Notes: generated by a model from the sequence alone, not told the origin. A DNA stretch of 64,000 nucleotides from Candidatus Woesearchaeota archaeon (GCA_018221105.1 JAAOYA010000001.1:50812-114811), one strand, 5' to 3'. Positions 4,389 through 44,197 are shown, counted from the stretch's first letter. Made by a program: numbers and translations.

Positions 4389-4452
4389 CCTCCTCTTTTC
4401 TTTTTTTTCATTAAATTTTTATATAACTTTAGTGTAGAAGTCGGCGGTGATA

Positions 4453-5226
4453 ATGATGAATAAGGTTTTTTTGGTAATATTAAGTATGATTCTTCTTGTA
4501 GGTCTTGCAATGGCGCAATCTGCAGTACCTCATCAGTTTAAAGGAAGCGTGACAGTTAACGGACAACCAGCAGCTAATGGGTTGTTAGTAACAGCACAAA
4601 TTGACGGCGTAGAAGTTGGAGCTACAATAACACAAGATGGCGGGTATGGTGCAGCGCCATATATATTTTACATTCGAGATCCTCACAGTGATCGTGCAGG
4701 AGAAACAATAACATTTTATGTTGACGGAGTTCAAGCAGCAACAAGTGTTTTTGCAAACGGTCACAGCACAACACTAAACCTCGCAATAACAAAAGAAACA
4801 ACCAACACTGGCGGTAACGGAGGCTCTGGTGGTGGAGGCGGTGGTGGCGGCTCCGGCGGAGGAGGTGGCGGTACAACCACGCCTGCTGATGATAATGAAT
4901 CACTAGAAACTGGCGAGCTAGAAGTTACAGCACTAGCAGGCTGTGCTCCTGCGTGGAGTTGCTCACAATGGCTTGACTGTGTTAACGGTGTTGAGAAACG
5001 CGTTTGTGCAGACGTCAGTGATTGCGGCACTTTAGCTGGTAGGCCAGCAGTACAGCGCGATTGTGAAATTGAAGAAAAGCCAGAAATCCAAGGAGAAAAA
5101 GGACCATTTAGTTTTATAACAGGAGCTTTCATTGGCGGTGCAGGATCGCCTGTAATGATTGGCTTTGTCTTAATAATCTTTGGTCTTGCAGGATACTTGT
5201 ATTTTAGGCAGCGAAAGAAAAAATAA
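4453..5226 (+). CDS. Membrane-anchored surface protein (PHxFxGxVxxNG domain, poly-Gly linker, Cys-rich WxCxxWxxC module, C-terminal TM)
   Basis: Signal peptide; VPHQFKGSVTVNG domain; GGGGGGG linker; CAPAWSCSQWLDCVNGVEKRVCADVSDCG; TM helix followed by RQRKKK. GTG at 4447 is part of the GGTGA SD, so ATG 4453 or 4456 is the likely start. Confidence 0.75.
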   Translation: MMNKVFLVILSMILLVGLAMAQSAVPHQFKGSVTVNGQPAANGLLVTAQIDGVEVGATITQDGGYGAAPYIFYIRDPHSDRAGETITFYVDGVQAATSVFANGHSTTLNLAITKETTNTGGNGGSGGGGGGGGSGGGGGGTTTPADDNESLETGELEVTALAGCAPAWSCSQWLDCVNGVEKRVCADVSDCGTLAGRPAVQRDCEIEEKPEIQGEKGPFSFITGAFIGGAGSPVMIGFVLIIFGLAGYLYFRQRKKK

Positions 5227-5236
5227 TTTTATTTTT

Positions 5237-5794
5237 TTATTTTAATAATAGCATTGCTGCTTCATATTTTTGTTCTAGCATTTTTTTACTATTTTCAAAG
5301 TGCAATTGATTCCACTTGTTTTCTAGTTTTTCCCTGACTGAGTCTCTTGCTTCATCCTGAGTTTTTTTCTCATAAACAAATGCTGCTTTGAAAAGTCCTG
5401 CTAGATTGTCAAAAGCGCTTATGGTGTCGGCATCAACAAGTATTTGTTCTTCAACACTTTCACGGTTATTGTCTTGTGAACCTCTGTGATTTAATATACA
5501 TTTTTTTACAATATCAATTTTTTCTTGAGGGTAATTGAATTCTGCTAGTTTTTCCTGTGCTATTTTAGCACTTGTAAAATGATGGTCGTCACGACCATAT
5601 TGTATGGATCCAATGTCGTGCAACCAAGCTGCAAGCAACACAATTTCTACGTCAGCGTTCAATTGATTGGCTAATTCTTCACAGTATTTAGCGACAGGGG
5701 TGAAGTGGTTGACGAAAGGCTCGTAGCCATAATTGCTTGTTGGCTTTTTACACTCTTCTTCAACAAAATTTTTTATTTGTTCTACAATACTCAT
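5237..5794 (-). CDS. HD-domain metal-dependent phosphohydrolase
   Basis: H...AAWLHDIG...H...H...DAD motif set; likely start MSIVEQ at 5794. Confidence 0.85.
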   Translation of the reverse strand: MSIVEQIKNFVEEECKKPTSNYGYEPFVNHFTPVAKYCEELANQLNADVEIVLLAAWLHDIGSIQYGRDDHHFTSAKIAQEKLAEFNYPQEKIDIVKKCILNHRGSQDNNRESVEEQILVDADTISAFDNLAGLFKAAFVYEKKTQDEARDSVREKLENKWNQLHFENSKKMLEQKYEAAMLLLK

Positions 5795-5865
5795 AAAAAA
5801 GTGCAAAGAACTCTTTTTAATAAACTTAACGAAAAAAACAGAACACAAGCTTTACTAAATTACTT

Positions 5866-6369
5866 TTATTTCTTAAATATTTTAGTAGATACTTTTCCTC
5901 CTGGACAAATTTTATTAAATTTACATCTAGGACAGAAAAATTTCCATTGTAACATTAAATGAATAATTAAAAGAAGCGCATAAGAAACTAATATGAAGAT
6001 ATTATTATAAAAAAAGAAGACTGGGTAAACGAAATAAATCCCGGTCAATATAGATACTATATGTTCTTTCTTTTTAGAATACTTAAATTTTTTATTCTTA
6101 AAAAACCAAGTTGACATAATATTTGCTAAACCCATACAAAGAATACCTGGACAAAACTTCCCCCTATAAGGACATCCAATACACCAATCTTTTGCTTGAA
6201 AAAATACTAATATAAAATAGAGCAGTATATATCCAATCAAAGCAAAGATTGAATATTTATAACTATAAATTATTGAAATAATAGTAAGAAGAACCCAAGT
6301 TAACAGAACAGTAAAAAAATAAAGAAACTTATCATTATCACTCCACTTAGATACTGTTTTAATTTTCAT
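5866..6369 (-). CDS. Small 4-TM membrane protein with two Cys clusters
   Basis: Hydrophobic helices; CIGCPYRGKFCPG and CPRCKFNKICPG; visibly AT-rich. Confidence 0.65.
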   Translation of the reverse strand: MKIKTVSKWSDNDKFLYFFTVLLTWVLLTIISIIYSYKYSIFALIGYILLYFILVFFQAKDWCIGCPYRGKFCPGILCMGLANIMSTWFFKNKKFKYSKKKEHIVSILTGIYFVYPVFFFYNNIFILVSYALLLIIHLMLQWKFFCPRCKFNKICPGGKVSTKIFKK

Positions 6370-6464
6370 TATAAATAAACTTTAAGAATCATAGCTCTTA
6401 AATAGTTTTCTATTTATTTTTCCCCTTCCATCTCAAGCTAATTTGTTATTTACCATCTTGATAA

Positions 6465-6704
6465 CTAAGCAGCTTCCTTTATTTCTTTTTCGACTACCAT
6501 TTCTAAATTGCTTTTTTTATCATCTGGTTCTTCTGGATAGTCGCAAGCAGGATATTTGTGGAATTTTAGTGTGATAATGCTCCATTTCTTTGAAGCGTAA
6601 ACCATACCTTCATACATATCTCCAGGCTGGATATAATCACAACATCTATCACACCAGTGATCCTTTTGTGCCACAAATGTATATGTTCGAAGTAGCCTAT
6701 CCAT
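6465..6704 (-). CDS. Small putative Zn-binding protein
   Basis: HWCDRCC...H...C motif in a 79-aa ORF; TATA-like sequence upstream. Confidence 0.55.
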   Translation of the reverse strand: MDRLLRTYTFVAQKDHWCDRCCDYIQPGDMYEGMVYASKKWSIITLKFHKYPACDYPEEPDDKKSNLEMVVEKEIKEAA

Positions 6705-6806
6705 AACGTTTAGCGAGATGAGAAAATATATAATATTTTTGATTTACGCGTGAATGTTATAAAGAAAAATCGCTCTAAGCACTCTAAAAAAATGAGGTGA
6801 TAAAGC

Positions 6807-8780
6807 TTAGCTTATCTTGGTGTTGTCAGGCATGTTGCATTGCACGCTTTCAGTTTTTGTTTTTAATTCTTTGTCCTTGTAATAGACTTTGTTGTTTTTT
6901 ACTGTTAGCTTGATTTTTTGAAAAGTTTTGAAATCTATTTGTGCAGTTGAGGGATTTGATCCTTCAATTGTTACTTGGTCTCCTGGTTTTGATTTTGGCG
7001 CTAAAACTAATGATAGTTTTCCGCTTGTTTCTCCTGCTAGTAGCATTCCATTACTTTCAACCCCTCGCAGTTTTGCAGGTTTTAAATTTGTCAAAACAAC
7101 AATGTTTTGACCCTTAAATTCGTCCGCACTCATGTAATCAACAAGTCCACTAACAATTTGGCGTTTTTCAGTGCCCAAATCAATCTGTGCAGTGTAAAGT
7201 TTTTCTGCATTAGGATGAGGTTTCACATCAATTACTTTTGCAACTTTAAGGTTTAATAACTCAATTCCTTCAATTTTTTCTTGTTTTTTAGCTTCTATGC
7301 GCGCAAATAAAGCTGTAGCCTTATTGACTTTTTTATTTTCTAAAAAGCCCCATTTCAAATCTTTAAATGTTGTTAGTTTAAAACTAAATTGCTCGGCAAT
7401 TTTTCTAGCTGTTAGTGGTGTGAATGGTTCAATGTAGTGTGCGATGTATGCTAGTGCATGAGCTGTAGAATTTACTACTGTTGCAAGCTCTGCTGTTTTA
7501 TTGTTTTTTGCTAGCTCCCACGGTTTTTCATCGTTTATGTATTTGTTAACACTTCGAATGTAACCCCATAGTATGTCGAGTGCTTTGTTGAATTCTAGTG
7601 TGTTATAATACTTGTTTAACTCGTTTTGTAGTTTTAGAGCGTCACTTTCTAGTTTTTTGTTAGCACTAGCTTGTGGTATTATGCCATCACAATATTTTGT
7701 TGCTAGCGCGTTTACACGCATCACAAGATTTCCCAAATCATTACCTAATTCGTTGTTGTAACGGTCATTTAGTGCTTTGAAGCTGAAGTTTCCATCAAGG
7801 CCAAATGGCAGTTCGCGTAGTAAAAAATAGCGTAGTGCGTCAGCTCCGTACTCTTCTATTGCTTGATCAAGTATTACAAAATTGCCTTTAGACTTTGACA
7901 TTTTTTCTCCTTCAACAGTCCACCAACCGTGAGAGTAAACCATTTTAGGCAATTCAATACCAGCGCTTAGTAGCATTGCTGGCCAGATAACTTTGTGAAA
8001 CCATGAGATGTCTTTACCAACCAAGTGCACATCACAAGGCCAGAATTCATCAAAGTTTTTGTTTTTGTCTAATGCGCTGATGTAATTAGTCAATGCGTCA
8101 AACCAAACGTAGACAATGTGTTTTGTGTCTAGTGGGAATGGTATTCCCCACTTAAAGCTTGTGCGACTAATTGACAAGTCTTTAAGTCCTTCTTTAACCC
8201 TGTTAATTATTTCTGATTGCCGACTTTTAGGACTGATAAATTCCGGATTCTTTTTGTAATAATCTAATAGTTTATCCTGGTATTTTGATAATCGAAAAAA
8301 ATAACTCTCTTCTTTTAATAATTGCACTACACGTTTGCATTCTGGACAATTACCATCAATTAATTGTAGTTCTGTCCAATAAGTCTCGCATGGAACACAA
8401 TAATAACCTTCGTACTCGCCAAGGTAAATGTCTCCTTTATCATTGACTTTCGTTATAAGTTCTTGAACGTATTTTTTATGGTGCTCGTCAGTAGTTCGAA
8501 TAAAATCATCAAATTCAATTTCTAGTTTTTTCCAGGCCTCACGAAAACGTTTTTCTAATTGGTTAGTAAACTCTAATGGAGTCATTTTTTTTTCTTTTGC
8601 TGCTAACTCAATTTTTTCCCCGTGCTCGTCAGTGCCAGTAAGAAAGAACACTTTTTTGCCAAGCAGTTTATGCCAACGGCTAAGAACATCCGCGGCAATT
8701 GTAGTGTACGCGTGCCCAATGTGCGGAATGTCATTAGGATAGTATATTGGCGTTGTCACATAAAAAGTATTTTTTGTCAT
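6807..8780 (-). CDS. metG: Methionine--tRNA ligase, bacterial (MetRS1-like) catalytic core with C-terminal tRNA-binding OB domain
   Basis: YVTTPIYYPNDIPHIGHAYTT (HIGH), GTDEHG, CVPCE...CPEC knuckle, YVWFDAL, GKDI, KMSKS; C-terminal LKPAKLRGVESNGMLLA. Confidence 0.97.
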   Translation of the reverse strand: MTKNTFYVTTPIYYPNDIPHIGHAYTTIAADVLSRWHKLLGKKVFFLTGTDEHGEKIELAAKEKKMTPLEFTNQLEKRFREAWKKLEIEFDDFIRTTDEHHKKYVQELITKVNDKGDIYLGEYEGYYCVPCETYWTELQLIDGNCPECKRVVQLLKEESYFFRLSKYQDKLLDYYKKNPEFISPKSRQSEIINRVKEGLKDLSISRTSFKWGIPFPLDTKHIVYVWFDALTNYISALDKNKNFDEFWPCDVHLVGKDISWFHKVIWPAMLLSAGIELPKMVYSHGWWTVEGEKMSKSKGNFVILDQAIEEYGADALRYFLLRELPFGLDGNFSFKALNDRYNNELGNDLGNLVMRVNALATKYCDGIIPQASANKKLESDALKLQNELNKYYNTLEFNKALDILWGYIRSVNKYINDEKPWELAKNNKTAELATVVNSTAHALAYIAHYIEPFTPLTARKIAEQFSFKLTTFKDLKWGFLENKKVNKATALFARIEAKKQEKIEGIELLNLKVAKVIDVKPHPNAEKLYTAQIDLGTEKRQIVSGLVDYMSADEFKGQNIVVLTNLKPAKLRGVESNGMLLAGETSGKLSLVLAPKSKPGDQVTIEGSNPSTAQIDFKTFQKIKLTVKNNKVYYKDKELKTKTESVQCNMPDNTKIS

Positions 8781-8803
8781 AGAAATGATTATTCGACGAT
8801 TAT

Positions 8804-9148
8804 TTAAAAATGTTTTGTGCTGGCCTGCACTAAGACTTGATGCAATGCTTTTTCTTCTTCTGTTTCTTTTGGCAGCACATAACCTTTTTTAGTAAGACAA
8901 TTTGCGATATATAACATTACTTCAAGACACTTGTCAGCTGCTAAAACAAAACTGTTTTGTTTTAGTGACGCATACTTTTGAGATGTTTTTTCTAGTATCC
9001 AATAAGCATAAGTATCAGAAACTGTTCCAACTAAAGGTTCTAATTCGCTGATTAATTCTTTAACAGTTATTTTTGGATCAGTAACAATTTTATCTAATGT
9101 GTGTTCGGTTTTTCTTACAGTTTGTAAATCTTTGACTACTGTTAACAT
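8804..9148 (-). CDS. Hypothetical protein
   Basis: 114-aa ORF between metG and the next gene; no recognised motif. Confidence 0.55.
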   Translation of the reverse strand: MLTVVKDLQTVRKTEHTLDKIVTDPKITVKELISELEPLVGTVSDTYAYWILEKTSQKYASLKQNSFVLAADKCLEVMLYIANCLTKKGYVLPKETEEEKALHQVLVQASTKHF

Positions 9149-9182
9149 ATTATAAAAATTTTAGAATTATATAAAAAACTTT

Positions 9183-9584
9183 TTATGGCTTTGTGCGGTA
9201 CTTACTTTCACGTCTTATCCAAAAAAGAAGTCTTGCCCCAAAATCGCATGGGTGTACTTGCCAATCGTTTACTTTTGAAGGGCTGTAATCAAGTCTTGCT
9301 TGCTTTGCTATAACTTCTGGAACATAAATATTTAATTCTTTTAAGAATACGTGACTCTCTAAATCCGCGCCATTAGTTTGAGGATTAAAACTTCCGCTTG
9401 CAGATCGTTTTATCGGGATTGCTATTTTTTGGCCTTCCCACTCGCTTGCCCTGTCAGGCTCTAATCCAGTAGCTATACGCCCTAAATCTATAATATAACA
9501 GTGTTTGCTGTCAGGTCTTAGAACTCTTCTAGAAGTGTGCGTTATTGCTTGTAAAACCCTTACTAGTGAGTCATCTTCTTGCAT
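9183..9584 (-). CDS. Hypothetical protein
   Basis: 133-aa ORF preceded by an AGGAG SD. Confidence 0.55.
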   Translation of the reverse strand: MQEDDSLVRVLQAITHTSRRVLRPDSKHCYIIDLGRIATGLEPDRASEWEGQKIAIPIKRSASGSFNPQTNGADLESHVFLKELNIYVPEVIAKQARLDYSPSKVNDWQVHPCDFGARLLFWIRRESKYRTKP

Positions 9585-9695
9585 GTCGTCTCCTAAAAAC
9601 GTTTAACAGTGTTATTTTGTCATTACTGCTATATATTATTTGTTATAAAAAAAGAAAAAAATAAGATTTTGTGTAAATATCATGTTATTGCGAGC

Positions 9696-9743
9696 TTACT
9701 CGCTGTCTTTTTCGTCTTCATCTTCAAATAAGTGGTATTTCAT
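9696..9743 (-). CDS. Putative 15-aa micropeptide MKYHLFEDEDEKDSE
   Basis: Not in the ORF track. On the minus strand: BRE/TATA-like AAAAAAGTTTTTAAAT (about 9790-9805), GGAGGT SD just before ATG 9743, stop TAA inside a GCGAG-TAAG-CTCGC hairpin. Confidence 0.45.
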   Translation of the reverse strand: MKYHLFEDEDEKDSE

Positions 9744-9839
9744 TTTTTTACCTCCGACTATTTTCTGTTCAAGCCAGTATTATGTTCGCATTTAAAAACT
9801 TTTTTGTCGACGATAAAAGGAGAATATTTGTTGTTTTTT

Positions 9840-9914
9840 GCTTTGTTTTAAACTATTGAACTCTGTAAAGACCTATCAGGGTTTGAAAAGTCTTGTTTTT
9901 TGCTAAAACAAAGC
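9840..9914. repeat. 75-bp element bounded by a perfect 11-bp inverted repeat (MITE-like or hairpin)
   Basis: GCTTTGTTTTA (9840-9850) and TAAAACAAAGC (9904-9914), with a nested AAGAC...GTCTT pair. Confidence 0.45.
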
Positions 9915-9982
9915 TTTTTTTGTGTTGTTAAAGTTGTTTTTTCGAACATTTTAAAAACCATTTATGACTTTTATTTTTTGAG

Positions 9983-10201
9983 GTGATTATCATAAAAGAC
10001 AAACAATTAAGAACCTTAGTAAAATCGATTAGTTGGCGTGTGATTGCAAGTACTGCGACAGCGATAATAGTATTAATTTTGACTGGCAGTTTTAAGTTAA
10101 TGATAGGGGCTGGAATTATGGATGCTACGTCAAAGTTCATGATTTATTACTTGCATGAAAGAATTTGGAATCACGTCAAATGGGGCAAAATAACAACATA
10201 A
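9983..10201 (+). CDS. DUF2061-family small membrane protein
   Basis: RTLVKSISWRVIAS...IYYLHERIWNHVKWG signature. Confidence 0.85.
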   Translation: MIIIKDKQLRTLVKSISWRVIASTATAIIVLILTGSFKLMIGAGIMDATSKFMIYYLHERIWNHVKWGKITT

Positions 10202-10211
10202 AAAAATAAAA

Positions 10212-10613
10212 TTATTTTTTTACTGCTTTCATTTTCTTTGTCACGTCTATTGTTTTGTGACATTTGTCGCACTCAAAGCGTAGTGTTTCTACTCCTTTAA
10301 CTTTTTTTCTTTTGAAAGGAACTTGTTTTTCTGAGTCATTTTTGCAGTGCGGACAAACATAACTAATATTTGCTGTTAGGCCTTCTTCATATTCTTCTTT
10401 TTCTACAGTGTAATGGCATGCTGGGCACTCGTATTCTTTTGCGCGAATTTTTGCCTTGCCAGTTTTTTCATTAACTGGTTTTCCCATTTGTGCTTTGTGA
10501 CACTTTGGACACTCTTGTTTGAAAACCCACAACATTACATTGCCATCATTTTCAAGTTTTCTACGTGTAAAATATACTAAGTCTTCCATACTATCCGGTT
10601 GTTCTATTGCCAT
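10212..10613 (-). CDS. Multi-CxxC zinc-ribbon protein
   Basis: CPKC, CPAC, CPHC, CDKC; basic. Confidence 0.75.
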   Translation of the reverse strand: MAIEQPDSMEDLVYFTRRKLENDGNVMLWVFKQECPKCHKAQMGKPVNEKTGKAKIRAKEYECPACHYTVEKEEYEEGLTANISYVCPHCKNDSEKQVPFKRKKVKGVETLRFECDKCHKTIDVTKKMKAVKK

Positions 10614-11287
10614 TATGTTCTCACCTTTTGAATTTCTTCTGATAATTTTTCATATTCGTCATAGCCTCTAATATCGCCCCAATTATCTTTGAGCATTTGA
10701 TATATTGCTGATATTGCCCATTCACTGATAGCACCTCTTTGTGAAAGGTTTGCGTGTTGAAATCTGACTGTTTGAGCATCAAGAAAAGCTCTTAGTGTTG
10801 CATCAAATTCTTTTCTTGCCTCGTCAAGCTCTCCTACAAGATTTGCTGCTTGTCTGTAATATCTCGCGGCAGTGCCAAACATTTCGACAGTTTTTCTAAC
10901 GTCTGGGTTGCCAATTTCTTTTTTTATAGTTAATAACAATTCGTCAAACTCATAAATTATTATTGCTGCTTGAAATTCTTTTATTGCAGTGTTATAATCT
11001 ACCCCTTCTAATCTTATAACTCCAGAACTTTGCAGTCCTTTCAATAATTGCTCTCCTTTTACTAGTTCTTTTTTGCTTAAACTTCTTTCTTCATGATTTA
11101 ATATCTTGTATAAGTCTATAGCTTCCTGGGCGTGAACGTGAACTTTGTGAGCGATAATTTTAGGGTTAGACAAGTGAACGTAAGTGCCTCCTGCGCCAAC
11201 GAGCACGCTAATACTTATCAGTAATGTGCGAAATAAAGCTCCAAGTTTTCTAGGCGTTCTATACCTTCTTTTCATAAATATTGACAT
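10613..11287 (-). CDS. Hypothetical protein with N-terminal TM anchor
   Basis: Basic N-terminus, then hydrophobic TLLISISVLVGAGG, then a helical domain. Confidence 0.6.
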   Translation of the reverse strand: MSIFMKRRYRTPRKLGALFRTLLISISVLVGAGGTYVHLSNPKIIAHKVHVHAQEAIDLYKILNHEERSLSKKELVKGEQLLKGLQSSGVIRLEGVDYNTAIKEFQAAIIIYEFDELLLTIKKEIGNPDVRKTVEMFGTAARYYRQAANLVGELDEARKEFDATLRAFLDAQTVRFQHANLSQRGAISEWAISAIYQMLKDNWGDIRGYDEYEKLSEEIQKVRT

Positions 11288-11288
11288 T

Positions 11289-12107
11289 TTATTCTTCTCT
11301 TAATCTTTTGATTTCAATGCTTATTGCGTTGTCATTGACTCGAATGTAGCGCGGGCACATTGTGTATTCTAGTTTGTGCGTGTTGCAATAATTTATTATA
11401 TTGTTTTTTTCTTGTTCATTATTATATTTTACTATTACGTTAATACCGTTGGCTTCTGGTTTTAATACGTTAAAATCGTATGCTTTCAAGTCAGCGAGTG
11501 CTTCATTGCGTTTTTTTGACAAGAATGCTAGGCGTTGTGGCAGCATTGTCAAAGCATAATCAATCTTTTCTAGTAATTCTGGTGATGGATTAAAACTTGT
11601 TGAAGCTTTTAAATAATCAAAATATTTTTGGTCACTTGTGGCGATAAAACCTCCACTTCCTGCCTCTACAGGTTTTGCGTTGCCAAAACTTCCTATTATA
11701 ATATCGCCAATTTTTGCGTTGTTTGTTCCAATGCTTGCACTAGCATCATTTACCAATAATGTATTAGTTTCTTTGGCTGCTTTTTGTATTGCTGCCATGT
11801 CTTGCATTGCAAAATAACCAGTCATGCTATTGACGAGTAGCACGCTGTTTTCTCTAACTCCAGCCTCGAAAACATCAACATCGATTAGTCCATAGTCTGT
11901 TTTTAACATTATCACATTCAATCCAAGCTTGTGAGCGTATTGCGGGTAAGTCATCCAACCACCCATATCTTGCAAGTAAACATTTTCAATTCCTTTATGC
12001 TGTGCTAATTGAAAACTTGTGAGCACTGCTATATTGCCACGGCGAGTGAGCAGCACGTACTCTTTACCAGTCAAAGCACGAATCTTAGATAGTACAGCGT
12101 CTAACAT
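11289..12107 (-). CDS. PLP-dependent fold-type I protein (DegT/DnrJ-like, archaeal type)
   Basis: LVNDASASIG...DIIIGSFGNAKPV (Asp and Lys PLP motifs); likely start MLDAV at 12107. Confidence 0.75.
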   Translation of the reverse strand: MLDAVLSKIRALTGKEYVLLTRRGNIAVLTSFQLAQHKGIENVYLQDMGGWMTYPQYAHKLGLNVIMLKTDYGLIDVDVFEAGVRENSVLLVNSMTGYFAMQDMAAIQKAAKETNTLLVNDASASIGTNNAKIGDIIIGSFGNAKPVEAGSGGFIATSDQKYFDYLKASTSFNPSPELLEKIDYALTMLPQRLAFLSKKRNEALADLKAYDFNVLKPEANGINVIVKYNNEQEKNNIINYCNTHKLEYTMCPRYIRVNDNAISIEIKRLREE

Positions 12108-37748: not shown

Positions 37749-37883
37749 TTATGTCATTGCTGTCTCTTTTGTACTCTTGTGATATTTTCCTGGTTCTACT
37801 TCTGGAATGTCTAAGAATAGTCTTGTGTCTGTTTTTGAACGTCTTTTTTTGCGCATTGGCCCGAATTTTGCTTCTTCTTCCAT
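37749..37883 (-). CDS. Unannotated 44-aa basic small protein leading the chaperone operon
   Basis: MEEEAKFGPMRKKRRSKTDTRLFLDIPEVEPGKYHKSTKETAMT; strong AGGAGGTG SD; stop lies 1 nt before the grpE ATG. Confidence 0.65.
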   Translation of the reverse strand: MEEEAKFGPMRKKRRSKTDTRLFLDIPEVEPGKYHKSTKETAMT

Positions 37884-37898
37884 AAAAACACACCTCCT

Positions 37899-37950
37899 GT
37901 TGATTTAAAGTCAACGAAGTAGACGTAGGTTGAACTCATATATAAATGTT
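37899..37950 (-). promoter_or_regulatory. Chaperone-operon promoter (TATA) with alternating TCAAC/GTTGA dyads in the leader
   Basis: Minus strand AAACATTTATATAT, then TCAAC-N13-GTTGA-N7-TCAAC before the SD. Confidence 0.5.
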
Positions 37951-37952
37951 TC

Positions 37953-37961
37953 TAAAAATTG
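37953..37961. repeat. 9-bp target-site duplication, left
   Basis: TAAAAATTG, identical to 44166-44174, abutting the TIR. Confidence 0.85.
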
Positions 37962-37973
37962 GGCTTTGCAGAT

Positions 37974-39074
37974 TTAATCGCCCTGGTTTGTCGATAAATT
38001 GTTTTTGTCGATAAAATCAATATCTAGATTGAGTTCGAAGACCTCGTGACATAGGACTATTAAGTTGTGTAAGAGGCATTTTACAAGAATTTCGTTGGTT
38101 TGGTTTGTTTCTCCTTTGGCTCGCAGTTTATGTCCTATTTTACGCTTAATCATACTGTATGTTGATTCCACGTTGCTTCTGAGGTGATAGTACTTCTTAA
38201 ACTCTGAATTGTTGTGTTTGAAGAAGAAGTATGCCCTTCTCCAAAACAGTTTTCCTCTTGCTCTACCTCTTGAATTTGCCTTGAAAGGAATTAAAGGAAT
38301 AGCGCCAATTTTGTAAATAACTTCTAAGTTATATCCTGAAAGATATGCTTTGTCTGCGCTTACATAGTCTATCTTGAAGTTTTTATTAGTTGTGCGGATG
38401 AGTTCAGGTAAGAATTTAGCGTCATGTTCATACCCTTCTGTGACTTTAACTGCTGTGATAATATTAGTCTTAGCTCCTGATGTTATATGGGCTTTCTTCC
38501 AAAGCCTAAGATTTGTTTCTCTTCCGTATTTTATATCGAACCATCTTTTGTATTGGCTTGTAGAAAATCCTGAAGAGTCAACACTGAAATGATTTTCAAC
38601 TTCTGCTAGTGGAATTGAGCTTAGTTCTATTAATTGTTTTAGCAACTCTGTGAGTTTAGGATTTTCATAGAATTTTAGAAGTGTTGAGAAGTGAAGTTTT
38701 TGAAACAAGTAATGTTTATCGTATGCTTCAGTTAACTCACAGGTTGTTCGCCTTGAACTCTTGCCGCAATATTGGTGGACGCACATGGCAAAGATTTGGT
38801 CTCTGATAGGAATGGGAGGTCTGCCTTTGCCAGTGCTTCTTTCTTCGTTAATCTGTGCTACAAGTTCGTCAAGAATCCGCATTATGAAGTGTTTTTCCGA
38901 GGTCTGAGCTTTATTATAGGCAGACCAGTTTTGCGGGTATGTCAAGCGAAGTTTTTTTGGAATTTCAACTGGTTCTTCGACTTGTTCTTTGACAATCGGC
39001 TCAAAAGTGCATTGTCCGCTATCTGTCGGGTACAGTTCTATAACTTTATCTTTGGCTGTTTCTATCATTTTCAT
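37974..39074 (-). CDS. DDE transposase, IS5/IS903-like
   Basis: N-terminal NWSAYNKAQ; D in SVDSSG; WKKAH; D in SADKAY; YHLRSNVESTYSMIK (YREK). The stop codon lies inside the left TIR. Confidence 0.92.
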   Translation of the reverse strand: MKMIETAKDKVIELYPTDSGQCTFEPIVKEQVEEPVEIPKKLRLTYPQNWSAYNKAQTSEKHFIMRILDELVAQINEERSTGKGRPPIPIRDQIFAMCVHQYCGKSSRRTTCELTEAYDKHYLFQKLHFSTLLKFYENPKLTELLKQLIELSSIPLAEVENHFSVDSSGFSTSQYKRWFDIKYGRETNLRLWKKAHITSGAKTNIITAVKVTEGYEHDAKFLPELIRTTNKNFKIDYVSADKAYLSGYNLEVIYKIGAIPLIPFKANSRGRARGKLFWRRAYFFFKHNNSEFKKYYHLRSNVESTYSMIKRKIGHKLRAKGETNQTNEILVKCLLHNLIVLCHEVFELNLDIDFIDKNNLSTNQGD

Positions 39075-39091
39075 ATTATCTATTATGAATA

Positions 39092-39197
39092 ATTAGTACT
39101 AATATATCATACTTATATATAAAACTTATGGTTTTTTAGACCTAATTCAACATTATTAGGTCTTATTTTTTCAGATAAATTTATATATTAGGTCTAA
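39092..39197. promoter_or_regulatory. Divergent promoter region with operator-like repeats
   Basis: AGACCTAAT-N8-ATTAGGTCT (39138-39163); third half-site ATTAGGTCTAA (39187-39197); palindrome ATTAGTACTAAT (39092-39103); back-to-back TATA boxes near 39112-39122 and 39178-39188. Confidence 0.7.
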
Positions 39198-39211
39198 CTA
39201 TACATATATAT

Positions 39212-39496
39212 ATGCCTAGTAGAAAAATTTCAAAAGAGGACAAACTAGAAATTGATGATATATTAAAAGAAAAAATTCAACCAGAAGATGAAATATTTAA
39301 AGTTCCCATCATAGTGAGTAAAACTGCGTTGAATGGAAAAGAACACAAGCAATTTAAATTAAATGTGCCTAAGAAACCAGCAGATATAATCGGTCTCAAC
39401 AAAGAAGATTTTGAAGCAATCTTTATCATAAAAAAAGAGAAAGAATCTCCTTTTGAAAAGAAGTTAATTGTTGAATTTGTCAAGAAAAATGGCTAA
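39212..39496 (+). CDS. Putative AbrB/SpoVT-like DNA-binding protein
   Basis: QFKLNVPKKPADIIGL resembles the swapped-hairpin motif. Confidence 0.55.
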   Translation: MPSRKISKEDKLEIDDILKEKIQPEDEIFKVPIIVSKTALNGKEHKQFKLNVPKKPADIIGLNKEDFEAIFIIKKEKESPFEKKLIVEFVKKNG

Positions 39497-39725
39497 ATTT
39501 GTAAACTCGCAAAAAAGAATAATCAAGGCATTATATAAACTTAGTAGAGCGGCTTCCATAAATGAAGTAGCTAAAAAAGCCGAAATTTCATGGAATACAG
39601 CCGAAAAACATTTAAAACTTCTTAAAAAAAGAAAAATAGTAGAATCAACTAGTAGTGATAGATTTTGGGAACTTTCCGCAGAAGCAACCTACAAAGAACA
39701 CAAAAAAGAAAGAACTAAAGAATAA
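39489..39725 (+). CDS. Winged helix-turn-helix regulator
   Basis: RIIKALYK...SINEVAKKAEISWNTAEKHLKLLKKRKIVE; ATG 39489 overlaps the previous stop. Confidence 0.85.
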   Translation: MAKFVNSQKRIIKALYKLSRAASINEVAKKAEISWNTAEKHLKLLKKRKIVESTSSDRFWELSAEATYKEHKKERTKE

Positions 39726-39742
39726 AAAGATAATAAGAAAAA

Positions 39743-42400
39743 ATGAAGAATTTATTTTGTGAAAAAGAACTATTGAAAGATGAAAGTGATGTCGAAAATT
39801 TATTTACAAGAAGATTGTTAGAATTTTTTGGTTATACTGATAGCTTAATTAAAACAAAGAAATCTTTAAATGTTTTAGTTATTGGTAAAGGTTCAAAAAA
39901 AGAGAATTACAAACCAGACTATGTATGTTTTCAAGATAAAAAACCAAAAATAGTAATTGACGCAAAATCTCCGACTGAAAATATAGATAATTATACTTAT
40001 CAAATCTCGGGTTATTCTTTAGGGTTAAATAGAAAATTTAAAGGTAAGAATCCTATTAGATTTGCAGCCTTAACAAACGGACTCTATTTTAAACTTTATA
40101 ATTGGGATGAAGAAGAACCGATTTTAGTTTTGAAATTTGAAGATTTCGTTAAAGGAAATAAAAAATTTGAAAGATTAGAAAGTCTGATAAGTTTAGAAAG
40201 CATTAAGAAGCAAACTGGAAAAGATGAGATTTTAGTAGACAACTTTTTAGCTAAACCTTCTGTTGAAGAAGTTAAATCTGCCTTTAACAAATGTCATAAC
40301 GTTATTTGGAAAAAAGAAAAGATAAGCCCCACAGATGCTTTTTATGAATTTTCAAAAATAATTTTTGTTAAACTAAATGAAGATAAAAGGATAAGGGATA
40401 TAATTGAATCTGGAAAATCATTAAAGAGAACAGATTTTAAGTTTTCTATTGAATGGTTGAATGAAAGAGAAAGTGAAACAGAAAGCCCATTAAGTTCTAT
40501 TCTTTTCGCTGAACTACAAAATAAACTACAAGATGAAATTGAAAAGAATAAGAAAAAACCTATTTTTAATAAAGGAGAGGGTATCGAACTTAAAGCACCA
40601 ACTATTAAGGAAGTAGTTAAGATTTTACAGAATTATGACTTATACACTATCGATGAAGATTTGAATGGAAGGATGTTTGAAACATTCTTAAACGCGACAA
40701 TTAGGGGAAGAGAGTTAGGTCAATATTTTACTCCAAGAAAAGTTGTTAAGTTTATGACTAAACTGGCAAATATACAAATAAAAAGACAAAATGGAGAAAT
40801 AAAAGTTGATTCTGTTTTGGACGCTTGTTGTGGAAGTGGCGGTTTTCTAATTGACACTATGGCGGATTTAATCGAGAAGGTTAAGAAAAACTCATCGTTG
40901 AAACCCTATTTAGAAGAAACAATGGAAAAGATAAGAACAGAAGCTATTTTTGGTATAGAAGCTAATCCGAAAATTTCTCGTATAGCAAGAATGAATATGT
41001 ATGTACATGGAGACGGCGGAAGTAGAATTTACTGTGCTGATTCTCTTGATAAAGAAGTTTCGATATGGAGAGGAACAAATAAAGGAATCAAAAAAGAGCT
41101 AGAAGAACTTAAAGGACTATTAGTTGAACAAAAAAAGAAATTCGATGTTGTTTTAACGAATCCGCCTTTTAGCATGGCTTACAAGAGCAAAGACAAAGAC
41201 GAAAAAGTAATATTAGAACAATATGCCGATACTGAAGAAAGAAAAAATATTTCTTATGAAAAAGGAAAAAACATATTAAAAAGCTCTGTGAAGTCAAATG
41301 TTTTGTTTATCGCAAGATATTGTGATTTGCTTAAAAATGGTGGAAGAATGTTTATTATTTTAGATAATTCTGTCCTTAATAGTTATACACATAAAGACTA
41401 CAGAAATTTTATAAGAAAAAATTTCATTATCAAAGCTGTTTTTCAATTACCAACTCATACTTTTGTGAATCAGGAAGCTGGAGGAATTACCTCAATTTTA
41501 TATTTAGAAAAAAGAAAAAGTACAGAACAAGAACAGTCTCCAATTTTTGCTAGAATAATAAATAGGGTTGGTCATGGAACTTCTGGAAAGGAAGAAAACG
41601 AAGATGATTTTGATAATGTTTTAAAAGAATATCTAAAATTTGAAGAGAAAGGAAAACCTTATTTACACGGAGAAAAAGAGATTAAGGATTTTGAAAATGA
41701 TGATTTATTTTTGATTAATAATGATATGATAAATGACAGATTAGATTTCTTTTATTATCAACCGAGTTATCACAAACTTTTAGAAAATTTGAGAAAAAAA
41801 GAAAAAGAAGGCAAATGTAATTTAAAGAAATTAGATGATTATACTCGTGTTGAAGGTATGAATGATGAAGAAAAAACAAAATTAGAAGAATCTGGAGAAA
41901 ATCCACGATATAAATATATTGGCATAAGCGCAATAGATAGGGAAAGAGGTTTTGTTATGTCAGGTGAATGGCAGGAAGGAACTAAAAAAGATTTACCTGC
42001 AAGGGCAAAATTATTTCTAAACACAAATGATGTTTTATTTTCAAAACCATTTAGGTCATTACAAAAAGTAATGATTGTACCAGAAGAACTAAACAATCAA
42101 TTGGGAAGTAGTGGATTTTGGGGAATAAGACCTAAAGATTATGATGAGGCATGTTTATTATGGAGCATTTTTAGGTCAAAACTTATTCAAAAGCAATTGA
42201 TTCATTTGGCAAGTGGCTATACTCAAAGAGAACTTAATGATGAGTATTTAAAAAAATATTTGATTATTCCAATTCCTAATGATGGCACAAAATCTTCTAA
42301 ATTCATAGCTGAGAATATAGAAAAAGCAAAAAAGTCAAGAATTAATGAGTTAGAAGCAATAAATAACATTTTAACCGAACCAATAGAAGCAATAAAATAA
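39743..42400 (+). CDS. Single-chain restriction-modification enzyme: HsdR-N-type nuclease + N6-adenine MTase + single TRD (type IIG / type I-like)
   Basis: PDYV...IVIDAKS, ALTNG; GQYFTPR, VLDACCGSGGFL, NPPF; C-terminal PARAK...NDVLFS...STG-like TRD. Confidence 0.88.
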   Translation: MKNLFCEKELLKDESDVENLFTRRLLEFFGYTDSLIKTKKSLNVLVIGKGSKKENYKPDYVCFQDKKPKIVIDAKSPTENIDNYTYQISGYSLGLNRKFKGKNPIRFAALTNGLYFKLYNWDEEEPILVLKFEDFVKGNKKFERLESLISLESIKKQTGKDEILVDNFLAKPSVEEVKSAFNKCHNVIWKKEKISPTDAFYEFSKIIFVKLNEDKRIRDIIESGKSLKRTDFKFSIEWLNERESETESPLSSILFAELQNKLQDEIEKNKKKPIFNKGEGIELKAPTIKEVVKILQNYDLYTIDEDLNGRMFETFLNATIRGRELGQYFTPRKVVKFMTKLANIQIKRQNGEIKVDSVLDACCGSGGFLIDTMADLIEKVKKNSSLKPYLEETMEKIRTEAIFGIEANPKISRIARMNMYVHGDGGSRIYCADSLDKEVSIWRGTNKGIKKELEELKGLLVEQKKKFDVVLTNPPFSMAYKSKDKDEKVILEQYADTEERKNISYEKGKNILKSSVKSNVLFIARYCDLLKNGGRMFIILDNSVLNSYTHKDYRNFIRKNFIIKAVFQLPTHTFVNQEAGGITSILYLEKRKSTEQEQSPIFARIINRVGHGTSGKEENEDDFDNVLKEYLKFEEKGKPYLHGEKEIKDFENDDLFLINNDMINDRLDFFYYQPSYHKLLENLRKKEKEGKCNLKKLDDYTRVEGMNDEEKTKLEESGENPRYKYIGISAIDRERGFVMSGEWQEGTKKDLPARAKLFLNTNDVLFSKPFRSLQKVMIVPEELNNQLGSSGFWGIRPKDYDEACLLWSIFRSKLIQKQLIHLASGYTQRELNDEYLKKYLIIPIPNDGTKSSKFIAENIEKAKKSRINELEAINNILTEPIEAIK

Positions 42401-42510
42401 AAATTTGTTTAGTCTAGAAAACAATTTGTAAAAATCCTTCGACCTTATATATACTATACAATAGTGACTTTATTGCTTTAAATTATTTAAAGATTTACTG
42501 ATAAAAAAAG

Positions 42511-43050
42511 TTAATCTTGTTGAGTATACTTTGAGATAGCCATATTTAAAAAAGATTTTAAAAGTGGCGTGGACTTGTCCATAAGCTTCTCTTGTTTTGG
42601 TATTATGCCTTTCCTACCATGAAATAAATTACATCTTATGGTGTATAGACATTCTAAAGCAGTCTGTAAGAGCTGACTTTCATTTTTAGTATCTTTTCGA
42701 TTTTTCATTGAACATAAGTCATTTTTAAGTTGCAGAATCAAATTTTCCTTTTTTCTATTTTGTAAATGAAAAATAAACTCTCTATTTGGTTTTAAACAGT
42801 TATAAAAATTTTTTATAAGTTTATGATTATCAGGTGTCAAAACAAGCAACTTATTTACTGCTAAAGCATTCTTTTTATTTTCATGTAAGTTTGCATTTTC
42901 ATTTTTTGATTTTGCATACAAGTTATAGAACATATTATATGCTATAAACAATGAGATAAACTTATCAAACTTATCTTTTGCGCTATCGGATTTTGAAATC
43001 CAAGCGTTTATCCTGCTCAAATTCATTTCTTCAATTTGTTCATCAACCAT
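42511..43050 (-). CDS. HEPN-domain putative ribonuclease
   Basis: FISLFIAYNMFY helix and LYTIRCNLFHGRK (R-X4-H). Confidence 0.8.
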   Translation of the reverse strand: MVDEQIEEMNLSRINAWISKSDSAKDKFDKFISLFIAYNMFYNLYAKSKNENANLHENKKNALAVNKLLVLTPDNHKLIKNFYNCLKPNREFIFHLQNRKKENLILQLKNDLCSMKNRKDTKNESQLLQTALECLYTIRCNLFHGRKGIIPKQEKLMDKSTPLLKSFLNMAISKYTQQD

Positions 43051-43699
43051 TTTTTCTTTTTTTTATGTTAATACTCCCATAACTGAATTTGCTTTGGTAA
43101 TCTTTTTGAATATTGTATAGTTTTAACAATTTTTTGTCGATTTTTATTGAGTTTTCCTCGAGTTTTAAGAAATTGATTGTTATTATTCGTAATGTTTGCA
43201 TAAATTCTGATTCGTAAGCTCTTTCCCAATTTTCTCCTTTAGTCACTTCTGATTTACTATTTAACCACGTTAATAGTTCTTTAATCATCTCTGGAAAATC
43301 AATAAGAATATAATCATACTTTTTTTCAACAAAATGTTTACATTCTTCTCTTTCTTCAGGTTTTATTGGCGGCATAACCATTATTTTTGAAAAATTATTG
43401 TGACCGAAAAACTTCTTTGCTTCTTTTAGTTCATCTTTTTGGAAAATTTTCCATTCTCTTTCAAACTTATCTTTGTTTTTCAATTGTTTTAGCGTGGTTG
43501 TTGCTGATTGCCAGCCTTTCACTGTTGCTATTGCATACTTTCCATACTTTCCTTTTTTTGGGTGAATCATAATAAGGTCTATATCTGCAGGACCAGCACC
43601 ACCTCCGTCTCCTGATTTTTTAAAATAATGATTAGTGTTGACTACGTAACCGTGAATGTTTTCAAAATACGCTTCAGCAATTTTTTCATTTACGTCCAT
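43043..43699 (-). CDS. PD-(D/E)xK-superfamily putative nuclease
   Basis: NEKIAEAYF...GY.V..N...ADIDLI...ATVKGW; GGTGG SD; 8-nt overlap with the HEPN gene. Confidence 0.65.
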   Translation of the reverse strand: MDVNEKIAEAYFENIHGYVVNTNHYFKKSGDGGGAGPADIDLIMIHPKKGKYGKYAIATVKGWQSATTTLKQLKNKDKFEREWKIFQKDELKEAKKFFGHNNFSKIMVMPPIKPEEREECKHFVEKKYDYILIDFPEMIKELLTWLNSKSEVTKGENWERAYESEFMQTLRIITINFLKLEENSIKIDKKLLKLYNIQKDYQSKFSYGSINIKKRKNG

Positions 43700-43717
43700 A
43701 AAACCACCTTTTGTTAG

Positions 43718-44029
43718 TTATATTGTGCATATAAGAGTACCAATTATTGTGCTTATGACGCCAACAATTCCTATTCCGATACCAACATTTCTCCAGAATC
43801 GTTCTTTTTTGTTTTTTTCTAGTAATTGATTGATTTTTTTGTCGCTGGCTTTTAGTGTCTCTTCTAAAACTCTGTCGCGAAGAGCTAACTCTTGCTTTAG
43901 CGAATTTATTTCGTGGCTTCGTAACTCGATATTTTTATGTTTTTGAAAGTGCTTATAGAACCTTCTAGCCTCTGGAGGAAGTTCGTCCATTAAAGTATCG
44001 GTAAGCGCCACAAACAATTTATCATCCAT
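43718..44029 (-). CDS. Coiled-coil protein with C-terminal TM helix
   Basis: EINSLKQELALRDRVLEETLK heptads; FWRNVGIGIGIVGVISTIIGTLICTI. Confidence 0.65.
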   Translation of the reverse strand: MDDKLFVALTDTLMDELPPEARRFYKHFQKHKNIELRSHEINSLKQELALRDRVLEETLKASDKKINQLLEKNKKERFWRNVGIGIGIVGVISTIIGTLICTI

Positions 44030-44165
44030 GATTATTTTCAGAAACTTTGTTTTTTAAATATTCAACGGTTTCAAGAGTTTTTACACAGAACGCTTTTTTG
44101 TAAATTTATTCTTTTATCGACAAAAACAGCTGTTAAACCGACAAAACGGTTAAAACGGCAAAGCC

Positions 44166-44174
44166 TAAAAATTG
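44166..44174. repeat. 9-bp target-site duplication, right
   Basis: TAAAAATTG immediately after CAAAGCC. Confidence 0.85.
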
Positions 44175-44197
44175 GGCTTTGTGTAAAAAGCTGTTTG

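Follow-up and report, generated by a model that had tools for sequence, protein, structure and literature searches.

A probable transporter insertion sequence of the IS903-like type with predicted restriction-modification cargo beside a grpE promoter, and its cargo-bearing relatives

Introduction

Some transposons are directed to promoters or other defined sites, as are Ty3 and Tf1 in yeasts, the P element at Hsp70, and Tn7 at attTn7. Members of the IS1202 group insert at dif sites (PMC10132070). The concept of the transporter insertion sequence (tIS), in which a single transposase and passenger genes share one pair of inverted repeats, is established (PMC9330008, PMC6305408), and bacterial restriction-modification (R-M) units, including type IIG fusions, have been described inside imperfect inverted repeats with short duplications (PMC2853133). 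The insertion sequence (IS) IS903 itself is 1,057 bp long and has a 9-bp target duplication (PMC12670165). Here, we describe a 6,204-bp element at positions 37962-44165 of a 64-kb stretch of DNA (JAAOYA010000001.1:50812-114811), which we call the window and from whose first letter all window coordinates are counted. The element contains one transposase open reading frame (ORF) and six further ORFs. We conclude, with a probability of about 0.85, that it is a transporter IS, or unit transposon, from an IS903-like clade of the IS5 family with unusually precise promoter targeting.

A single transposase within one pair of inverted ends

The element is enclosed by two copies of the 9-mer TAAAAATTG (Table 1). 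Its imperfect inverted ends are ~55 bp long when aligned, with the tip GGCTTTGC. The terminal 19 bp, read as GGCTTTGCAGATTTAATCG from 37962 on the plus strand and as GGCTTTGCCGTTTTAACCG from 44165 on the minus strand, are identical at 16 of 19 positions, and a perfect 17-bp box, TGTTTTTGTCGATAAAA, is found 39 to 55 bases inward of each tip (38000-38016 on the plus strand and 44112-44128 on the minus strand). A preliminary description of the locus had noted the direct repeat, the terminal match, the TTTGTCG and 17-bp boxes, and a sole transposase whose stop codon falls inside the left end; all of these hold on reading the sequence, with the stop codon located within the terminal 19 bp.

When up to 3 mismatches are allowed, a degenerate form of the terminal 19-mer is matched twice in the window, by the two ends of the element, and none of 100 shuffles reached two matches. 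The 17-mer TGTTTTTGTCGATAAAA also has two exact copies in the window, both at the ends. No internal end was detected at 38017-44111 by a search with 3 mismatches, a loose end pattern, or a scan for the boxes; this includes the vicinity of 39100, where the preliminary description had considered that the transposase might have a nearer right end of its own. Furthermore, tblastn and self-blastn searches of the window revealed no second transposase-like sequence and no second copy of the element. The locus therefore lacks the two IS copies that surround the cargo of a composite transposon and instead has one transposase with passengers, one pair of inverted repeats, and one duplication, as do transporter ISs and unit transposons.

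The catalytic residues of the transposase are D166, D241, and E303, the last of which is part of the signature Y296-x2-R299-x3-E303-x6-K310. An alignment of 15 relatives shows no variation at D166, D241, E303, Y296, R299, or K310. The DDE triad and the Y-2-R-3-E-6-K signature are the IS903-type motifs that had been proposed for this protein, and the element matches the IS903 group in having them together with a DDE_Tnp_1 domain, a 9-bp duplication, and ends that start with GGC. It departs from the group in size, because IS903-like insertion sequences measure ~0.95-1.15 kb and have one ORF. The IS903 terminus itself begins GGCTTTG. A Klebsiella plasmid match considered as an IS903 reference was uninformative, being located between ISCR1 and armA and lacking GGCTTTG ends.

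Relatives of the transposase have been found in metagenome-assembled genomes (MAGs) of Woesearchaeota and Nanoarchaeota, and the window has archaeal promoters composed of a TFB recognition element (BRE) and a TATA box; judged from these sequences, a DPANN archaeon is a plausible host.

Long, cargo-bearing elements are the normal form of the clade

Database searches returned 2,486 relatives of the transposase at E ≤ 1e-10, and those with a source name come from Woesearchaeota, Nanoarchaeota, and unclassified archaea. We gathered ~200 loci encoding relatives from genome, metagenome, Logan, and IMG/VR contigs and scanned them, using a simple end-finding script of our own, for (A/G)G(C/T)TTTG ends accompanied by a matching 9-bp direct repeat. 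Bounded elements were recovered at 67 loci from genome, metagenome, and Logan contigs and at 14 from IMG/VR (~80 in all). All are bounded by (A/G)GCTTTG ends with 9-bp duplications that are perfect in nearly every case, and, with lengths of 2,167 to 11,371 bp, none is as short as an IS. Each element has one transposase, which is located at one end in archaeal elements and further inward in several bacterial ones. Given that the ~80 bounded relatives are long, cargo-bearing, and equipped with a single transposase, this is the normal form of the clade, and the window element is a typical member. Three loci illustrate the point: L005 (transposase identity of 60%, element of 3,188 bp, duplication TATAAAACC), L004 (54%, 5,681 bp, CCCTTTTCC), and L002 (62%, 6,733 bp) have the same architecture as the window element and unrelated cargo. 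In close relatives whose contigs stop within the element, no far end is present in the available 0.5-2.5 kb.

The ends across the clade begin with GGCTT, followed by a box of 8-12 bp, of which two or three subterminal repeats are present. Its sequence varies with the transposase clade: it is TTTGTCG in the window element and in relatives of 66-72% identity (including the closest two, L168 and L169), TGCACATAAA in the group of 54-62% identity, and TGTTTAATAAGT in others. Such repetition is the pattern expected of multiple transposase-binding sites, and the boxes may have that role.

These data also bear on whether the 6.2-kb region is one element at all, since it could be read as an ordinary IS of ~1.2 kb next to an unrelated genomic island, with the far end and its 9-bp repeat being coincidental or derived from a decayed copy. 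Under that reading, one would point to the base composition (the transposase and the 103-aa ORF have a host-like G+C content, and the interior is much more AT-rich) and to the solo end-like sequence that exists at 44175. However, neither an end nor a subterminal box occurs at 38017-44111, the far end has the perfect 17-bp box of the near end, matches it at 16 of 19 terminal positions, and has the same 9-mer beyond it, and the long layout with a single transposase is common to ~80 relatives, none of which is short. We consider this alternative to be highly improbable. G+C content is 26-31% in the interior (39.0-43.5 kb), 36-38% in the transposase gene, and 33-45% in the flanks, in agreement with the earlier impression that the cargo is more AT-rich than its surroundings; the 103-aa ORF, at 36%, resembles the transposase gene and not the cargo. 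In most elements of the clade, similarly, G+C content is lower in the cargo than in the transposase gene and lower in the whole element than in its flanks.

R-M genes dominate the cargo. DNA methyltransferase or restriction genes are present in 16 of the first 21 bounded elements, as type IIG-like fusions with HSDR_N and TaqI_C domains, type I-like pairs of modification and specificity (S) genes, C5 methylases (one of them paired with a Bsp6I-like endonuclease), D12 methylases, a PLD-type endonuclease, and N4/N6 methylases fused to or paired with Mrr-like nucleases. A pooled scan of 105 more cargo ORFs from 41 elements added 13 methyltransferases, as well as NgoPII, HinP1I, GmrSD, AIPR, PD-(D/E)xK, and UvrD-like proteins. 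Other sibling cargo includes a MORC-like ATPase, DprA, a NosD-like beta-helix protein, and a DUF6036 nucleotidyltransferase.

Several further observations concern individual members of the clade. Transposases of the wider family (~400-490 aa; P0018, P0032, P0035, and others) often have a SWIM zinc finger (PF04434), which the 366-aa protein of the window lacks. L004 has an extra end (GGCTTTGCACTTACTTATAAG...) at position 6351, facing inward and placed 874 bp internal to the duplication-matched left end (5477); this suggests cargo accretion through an alternative outer end. In L168, the closest relative (72%), a tRNA gene (165-239; tRNA-Ser with anticodon ACT according to ARAGORN) is located 300 bp upstream of the transposase gene, and it may be cargo because no left end lies between the two. 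Four contigs (L007, L008, L037, and L138) consist entirely of an element and 54-55 bp of flank on either side. Such contigs fit a k=55 assembly graph in which the element is the inserted branch of a presence/absence polymorphism or has repeated flanks, and the four insertions may still be polymorphic in their communities. Finally, 26 predicted viral or proviral contigs from IMG/VR (L175-L200) encode family members, and 14 of them have bounded elements of 3.1-6.1 kb. Most of the IMG/VR contigs have a high G+C content and, therefore, presumably come from bacteria. The elements may be carried by viruses or proviruses; alternatively, the flanking host DNA may have been misclassified.

A TATA box at a fixed spacing from archaeal insertion sites

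We scored TATA boxes in reconstructed empty sites, in part with a simple script of our own, and classified loci as archaeal or bacterial from the naming of their source or, for close relatives, from genomic context. On one side of the duplication, six bases are followed by a TATA box that points away from the element. Of 62 non-redundant sites, 22 have the exact motif TTTWWAWA at offset 6, in 10 cases beyond the cargo end, in 12 beyond the transposase end, and never at both; the motif is almost absent from the other offsets between 0 and 36. When a match at 7 or more of 8 positions is accepted, a TATA box is found at offset 5-7 in 22 of 25 archaeal elements and in 0 of 18 bacterial ones, against a background of 1.4% per position. 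In almost all sites with a testable flank, the TATA box is followed after 6-103 bp by the start of an outward ORF of 50 codons or more (21 ORFs). The six bases between the duplication and the TATA box in promoter-aligned sites are BRE-like and follow the pattern RAAAMN, while the duplicated 9 bp and the far flank have no strong consensus. Because the consensus is confined to the promoter side, we conclude that the target determinant is one-sided and is used in both orientations. A palindromic target, as reported for IS903, was rejected for the archaeal sites on the same ground.

The same 9 bp can be used more than once. At L066 (2779-12116), two different elements are arranged in tandem (2788-6822 and 6832-12107), and copies of the 9-mer GTTGGACCG flank the pair and separate its two members; the later insertion used the 9 bp that the earlier one had duplicated. 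In L051, L084, L111, and L115, a neighboring end abuts the duplication. Bases 1-20 of the L005 contig consist of TGCACAAAGCC and TATAAAACC directly before the left end, giving the order end, duplication, end, which could represent a tandem neighbor, a solo end, or the junction of a circle or dimer. The window has the same arrangement, with the solo end GGCTTTGTGTAAAAAGC at 44175 beside the duplication. This solo end was probably left behind by an element that had occupied the 9-bp site before; in the window, it has no partner end, no third end-adjoining copy of TAAAAATTG, and no transposase remnant, and the 144-aa ORF next to it has no family match.

Could the promoter-adjacent position be what is left after random insertion and selective loss elsewhere in compact genomes? 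Archaeal intergenic regions are short and would consist mostly of promoter, and only surviving insertions can be observed, which speaks for this scenario. Selection, however, gives a boundary, whereas the data show a spike: 22 sites have an exact TATA match at offset 6, and hardly any have one at 9-36. Independent elements have also re-used the same 9 bp (in three copies at L066, and at L051, L084, L111, L115, L005, and the window), and bacterial members have no such pattern. Selection alone does not readily account for a spike at one offset together with re-use of one 9-bp target, and we regard random insertion as unlikely.

Two independent bacterial insertions, L021 and L111, share CTTGCATAATTAT directly beside the duplication in their cargo-side flanks. 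It is possible that a bacterial sub-clade uses this flank as a sequence-specific target of another kind.

The window element and several relatives are located at heat-shock promoters

In the window, the order on the minus strand is the duplication, GAAACA, TTTATATA, 24 bp, the palindrome TTGACTTTAAATCAA, the Shine-Dalgarno-like AGGAGGTG, an ORF of 44 codons, grpE, and dnaK. The palindrome in the form TTGAYYTWARRTCAA has one copy in the window. It is found 28-38 bp past the transposase-side duplication in L004, L005, and L170/L171, upstream of grpE, and in L006, upstream of hsp20, and it does not occur elsewhere in the 1.8 Mb of collected loci. The palindrome (TTGATTTAAAGTCAA/TTGAYYTWARRTCAA) resembles archaeal heat-shock operators of the CTAAC-N5-GTTAG type and is probably a heat-shock operator. 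A heat-shock promoter is the insertion site in 4 of 7 other relatives with at least 54% identity whose contigs were read; L002, L168, and L169 are inserted elsewhere. Including the window, there are five heat-shock sites (grpE four times and hsp20 once), and the transposase end faces the promoter in all five.

Shared position might reflect descent instead of targeting, if the element were an old, vertically inherited, and possibly domesticated resident upstream of grpE. The window element, L004, L005, and L170 all have the transposase end toward grpE, and the terminal GGC of L170 is changed to TGT. Moreover, transposase identity among the relatives that share the grpE position (54-60%) is close to GrpE identity (42-53%), and common descent is possible because the two are similar. 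On the other hand, duplications are perfect in the window, L004, and L005 even though the 9-mers differ between lineages, the cargo of these lineages is unrelated, and L006 is located at an hsp20 promoter instead of grpE. Solo ends beside the window element and L005 indicate repeated occupation of the site, and the window transposase is intact, with all invariant residues kept. Long-term residence, therefore, appears to us quite improbable, more so than random insertion, and we favor repeated, targeted insertion.

The ORF of 44 codons (37757-37891, minus strand) lies between the heat-shock promoter and grpE and has a strong Shine-Dalgarno-like sequence, AGGAGGTG. Its stop codon overlaps the grpE start (TAAAATG). 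The ORF is absent in L004, where grpE directly follows the promoter.

Table 1. Features of the element and its insertion site in the window
Feature	Coordinates	Strand	Description
Palindrome TTGATTTAAAGTCAA	37900-37914		Separated from the duplication by 38 bp; beyond the TATA box and ahead of the first ORF in the grpE-dnaK operon
Target promoter	37939-37952	-	BRE-like GAAACA (37952-37947) and TATA box TTTATATA (37946-37939); abuts the duplication
Target-site duplication, transposase side	37953-37961		TAAAAATTG; abuts the element end; identical to 44166-44174
Transposase-proximal terminal inverted repeat	37962-38016	+	Terminal GGCTTTGCAGATTTAATCG; boxes TTTGTCGATAAA (37987-37998) and TGTTTTTGTCGATAAAA (38000-38016)
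DDE transposase, 366 aa	37974-39074	-	Pfam DDE_Tnp_1 (PF01609), E = 2.6e-19
Divergent promoter region of transposase gene and cargo operon	39075-39211		TATA boxes on both strands, read from the sequence
94-aa ORF	39212-39496	+	No match in Pfam, NCBIfam, or PADLOC
Winged-helix DNA-binding protein	39468-39725	+	85 aa from TTG or 78 aa from ATG at 39489; Pfam DUF7342, E = 1.3e-7
Predicted single-chain restriction-modification-specificity enzyme, 885 aa	39743-42400	+	Pfam N6_Mtase (1.1e-36), Eco57I (2.5e-13), and HSDR_N (4.6e-5)
179-aa all-helical protein	42511-43050	-	RCNLFH (RxxxxH) motif; weak PADLOC DzbB match, E = 3.8e-4
218-aa protein	43043-43699	-	3 homologues; conserved GPADIDLI...VKGWQS motif; model pLDDT of 67.5
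103-aa protein	43718-44029	-	C-terminal hydrophobic anchor in the translation; no family match in Pfam, PADLOC, or NCBIfam
Cargo-side terminal inverted repeat	44111-44165	-	Terminal GGCTTTGCCGTTTTAACCG; boxes TTTTGTCGG and TGTTTTTGTCGATAAAA
Target-site duplication, cargo side	44166-44174		TAAAAATTG
Solo outward-facing end-like sequence	44175-44193	+	GGCTTTGTGTAAAAAGCTG; abuts the cargo-side duplication; resembles the ends of L132 (GGCTTTGTGTAAGAAAGGC)

The window cargo encodes a predicted single-chain R-M enzyme

The largest cargo protein of the window, of 885 aa, has the architecture of a type IIG/IIB fusion: an N-terminal HSDR_N-like PD-(D/E)xK nuclease domain is followed by a gamma-class N6-adenine methyltransferase with motifs I and IV (LDACCGSGGF and NPPF in the translation) and by a C-terminal target-recognition domain resembling an S subunit. 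Its best PDB match is RM.BsaXI (E = 1.3e-23, residues 13-598), and residues 721-846 match type I S subunits. The R-M fusion of the preliminary description is, thus, supported. The closest relative of the enzyme in sibling cargo is encoded in L053, from an Acidobacteriaceae MAG (45.5% identity over 549 residues); this bacterial match hints at exchange of cargo or of whole elements between domains. The NCBIfam models MAD2 (E = 6e-62, 210 bits against a cut-off of 720) and MAD5 (E = 5e-11, 42 bits against 400) also match the 885-aa protein, and no other gene of the MAD1-MAD8 set is found by NCBIfam in the window. Because these scores, and those against BREX models, are far below the cut-offs, we rejected membership of the protein in the MADS or BREX systems.

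The winged-helix protein encoded just upstream also matches several helix-turn-helix (HTH) families in Pfam and has Csa3/CasR-type HTH matches in PADLOC. Three copies of ATTAGGTCT/AGACCTAAT at 39137-39198, within the 137-bp gap between the divergent genes, surround the TATA box of the cargo operon (inverted repeat I7) and are probable operator sites. Given the position of the winged-helix gene and the three copies of ATTAGGTCT in the operon promoter, a controller-protein arrangement is reasonable, and the winged-helix protein is probably the controller of the downstream R-M gene. Of the two regulators proposed earlier, it alone has a match to a DNA-binding domain. A search of the cargo of 20 sibling elements for a relative of the 94-aa ORF found none. 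The cargo promoter (39168-39200) and the grpE promoter (37926-37958) are 79% identical over 33 nt in inverted orientation (repeat I2), a likeness that may be due to chance, to a common promoter consensus, or to history.

For two of the remaining cargo proteins, the labels given earlier are unproven. The 218-aa protein had been called a nuclease. Its best Foldseek matches are to EcoT38I (E = 0.013) and also to Nt.BspD6I, but the E values (0.013-0.08) make this resemblance to PD-(D/E)xK restriction enzymes non-significant, and the acidic residue of D...(D/E)xK is missing from its conserved motif, D..D...(T/S)VK. The predicted model is possibly of a PD-(D/E)xK-like fold. The 179-aa protein had been called HEPN, a label for which an RxxxxH motif and the weak DzbB match are the only support; it has no Pfam HEPN match, one homologue among 5.8 billion proteins, and an AlphaFold model with a pLDDT of 49 and no fold match. 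The genomic contexts of the homologues of these two proteins are not conserved. Rfam and tRNA scans of the window detected no RNA genes in or beside the element.

What the cargo does for its carriers can be viewed in two ways. Judging from its domains, the 885-aa enzyme would methylate the host genome and cut unmodified incoming DNA, and this activity would both protect the cell and penalize loss of the element. In bacteria, R-M genes have been documented to behave in a selfish, mobile manner and to occur in units with inverted repeats and duplications at their borders (PMC2853133); R-M genes being the commonest cargo across the clade, they may serve the transposon as an addiction module that kills cells which lose the element, with antiviral defense as a by-product. 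A methylase and nuclease in a single chain give weaker post-segregational killing than separate enzymes, which tells against a role in addiction for the window enzyme, and the roles in defense and addiction are not exclusive and are not separated by the present data. We put addiction as the main role close to an even chance, but somewhat under it.

Weighing the evidence for a mobile, promoter-targeted element

Several points weigh against our assignment of the window element. The transposase scores 138.6 bits with the NCBIfam model IS5_2, below the cut-off of 140, and its nearest named relatives in a plasmid collection, the IS5-family elements ISRhba5, ISVa2, IS17, ISEcl3, and ISAs4, are 22-32% identical to it. 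When the 144-aa protein of the right flank and GrpE were looked up by exact sequence, the result was the same genome or no match and, hence, no empty site. No second copy of the window's own element was found, and its proteins are recorded elsewhere only in the same genome, from one sequencing run. With neither an empty site nor a second copy, the mobility of the window copy rests on its duplication and its siblings. To these points may be added the parallel between transposase and GrpE identities noted above, the fact that selection against disruptive insertions could account for part of the promoter association, and the assignment of functions, by domains, to 2 of the 6 cargo ORFs (the R-M fusion and its winged-helix partner), the other four being unassigned.

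Nevertheless, the core of the preliminary description, a non-composite, IS903-like element that has a single transposase, moves cargo containing defense genes, and was inserted recently, is supported and passed the tests named beforehand, with one shortfall: of the sibling elements and the empty site that had been anticipated, siblings with different cargo, the same end type, and 9-bp duplications exist, and the empty site was not found. While right about the element, that description missed the cargo-bearing build of the whole clade and the fixed distance of archaeal members from the promoter.

A model for target choice and cargo exchange

We take region 37962-44165 to be one mobile unit, in which everything between the ends travels with the transposase. 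The transposase would bind the termini and the subterminal TTTGTCG boxes, and a 9-bp staggered cut would give rise to the duplication. TBP bends TATA DNA sharply, and TFB contacts the BRE. Either the transposase or a promoter-bound host factor could position the strand-transfer complex, through promoter DNA or through TBP/TFB, whose binding would leave the DNA just upstream exposed to insertion. Such placement would leave the promoter and the neighboring genes intact. Re-use of the same 9 bp would produce tandem elements and solo ends and provide a route for cargo exchange, since tandem insertion followed by loss or skipping of the inner ends could yield new cargo combinations.

In its fullest form, our hypothesis is that the archaeal branch picks its target by reading the pre-initiation site, either as BRE/TATA DNA or as the bent TBP/TFB complex, and integrates in the 9 bp directly upstream; that the sub-clade of the window element is biased toward heat-shock promoters; that repeated landing generates tandem arrays and solo ends, between which recombination or end-skipping shuffles R-M and other defense cargo across archaea and bacteria; and that the whole is a prokaryotic counterpart of Ty3/Tf1 tethering. 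We offer this combined proposal tentatively, with more doubt than confidence.

Transporter ISs, mobile R-M units, and site-directed transposons are already known, and the window element belongs to the first of these classes. The clade itself is widespread in archaea and bacteria and apparently undescribed: in the open-access literature, we found no report of an archaeal transposon at a fixed spacing from a TATA box and none of an IS903-like clade with universal cargo that is mostly R-M. If our reading is true, a large family with a single transposase is a vehicle that spreads R-M and defense genes in small-genome DPANN archaea and beyond, and it follows a precise target rule in archaea, insertion six bases upstream of the TATA box. 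The rule could help to find promoters in uncultured archaea and is a possible basis for a tool for position-specific insertion in archaeal genetics.

Comparison with known systems

In its chemistry, end type, and duplication length, the window element agrees with IS903, to which it is only distantly related in sequence. Like IS903 and IS102, it has a DDE_Tnp_1 transposase with the Y-2-R-3-E-6-K signature, a 9-bp duplication, a transposase gene that reaches one end, and ends that start with GGCTTTG; several of its relatives have GGCTTTGTTTAATAAGT, which is near the IS903 terminus. In contrast to IS903 (1,057 bp, one ORF), however, it has 6,204 bp and seven ORFs, ends of ~55 bp with repeated subterminal boxes, and an insertion tied to archaeal promoters.

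In combining one IS-type transposase with passengers between inverted repeats and a flanking duplication, the element resembles transporter ISs and unit transposons such as ISArsp12, ISPst2, and the ISNCY elements. What distinguishes its clade is that cargo is the rule (~80 of ~80 bounded elements), that this cargo is mostly R-M, and that the clade spans archaea and bacteria.

The R-M units described by Furuta, Abe and Kobayashi in 2010 (PMC2853133) are also R-M genes in transposon-like structures with inverted repeats and short duplications. Those units are bacterial, mostly without an identifiable transposase, and have 8-bp duplications, and no archaeal case survived the screen, whereas the clade described here has a defined transposase family. 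At the level of the enzyme, for which BsaXI-type (IIB) and type IIG fusions are the closest known systems, a nuclease followed by a gamma-class N6-adenine methyltransferase is the order of RM.BsaXI; BsaXI has a separate S subunit, while the window enzyme has a type I S-like specificity domain fused in the same chain.

With Ty3, Tf1, the P element (Hsp70), Tn7 (attTn7), and the IS1202 group (dif), the clade has in common that insertion is fixed relative to a functional site and that genes are spared, and the preference of the window sub-clade for heat-shock promoters recalls Tf1 and the P element. It differs from these site-directed transposons in its unrelated transposase family, in having no evident accessory targeting protein, and in the use of both orientations across the clade.

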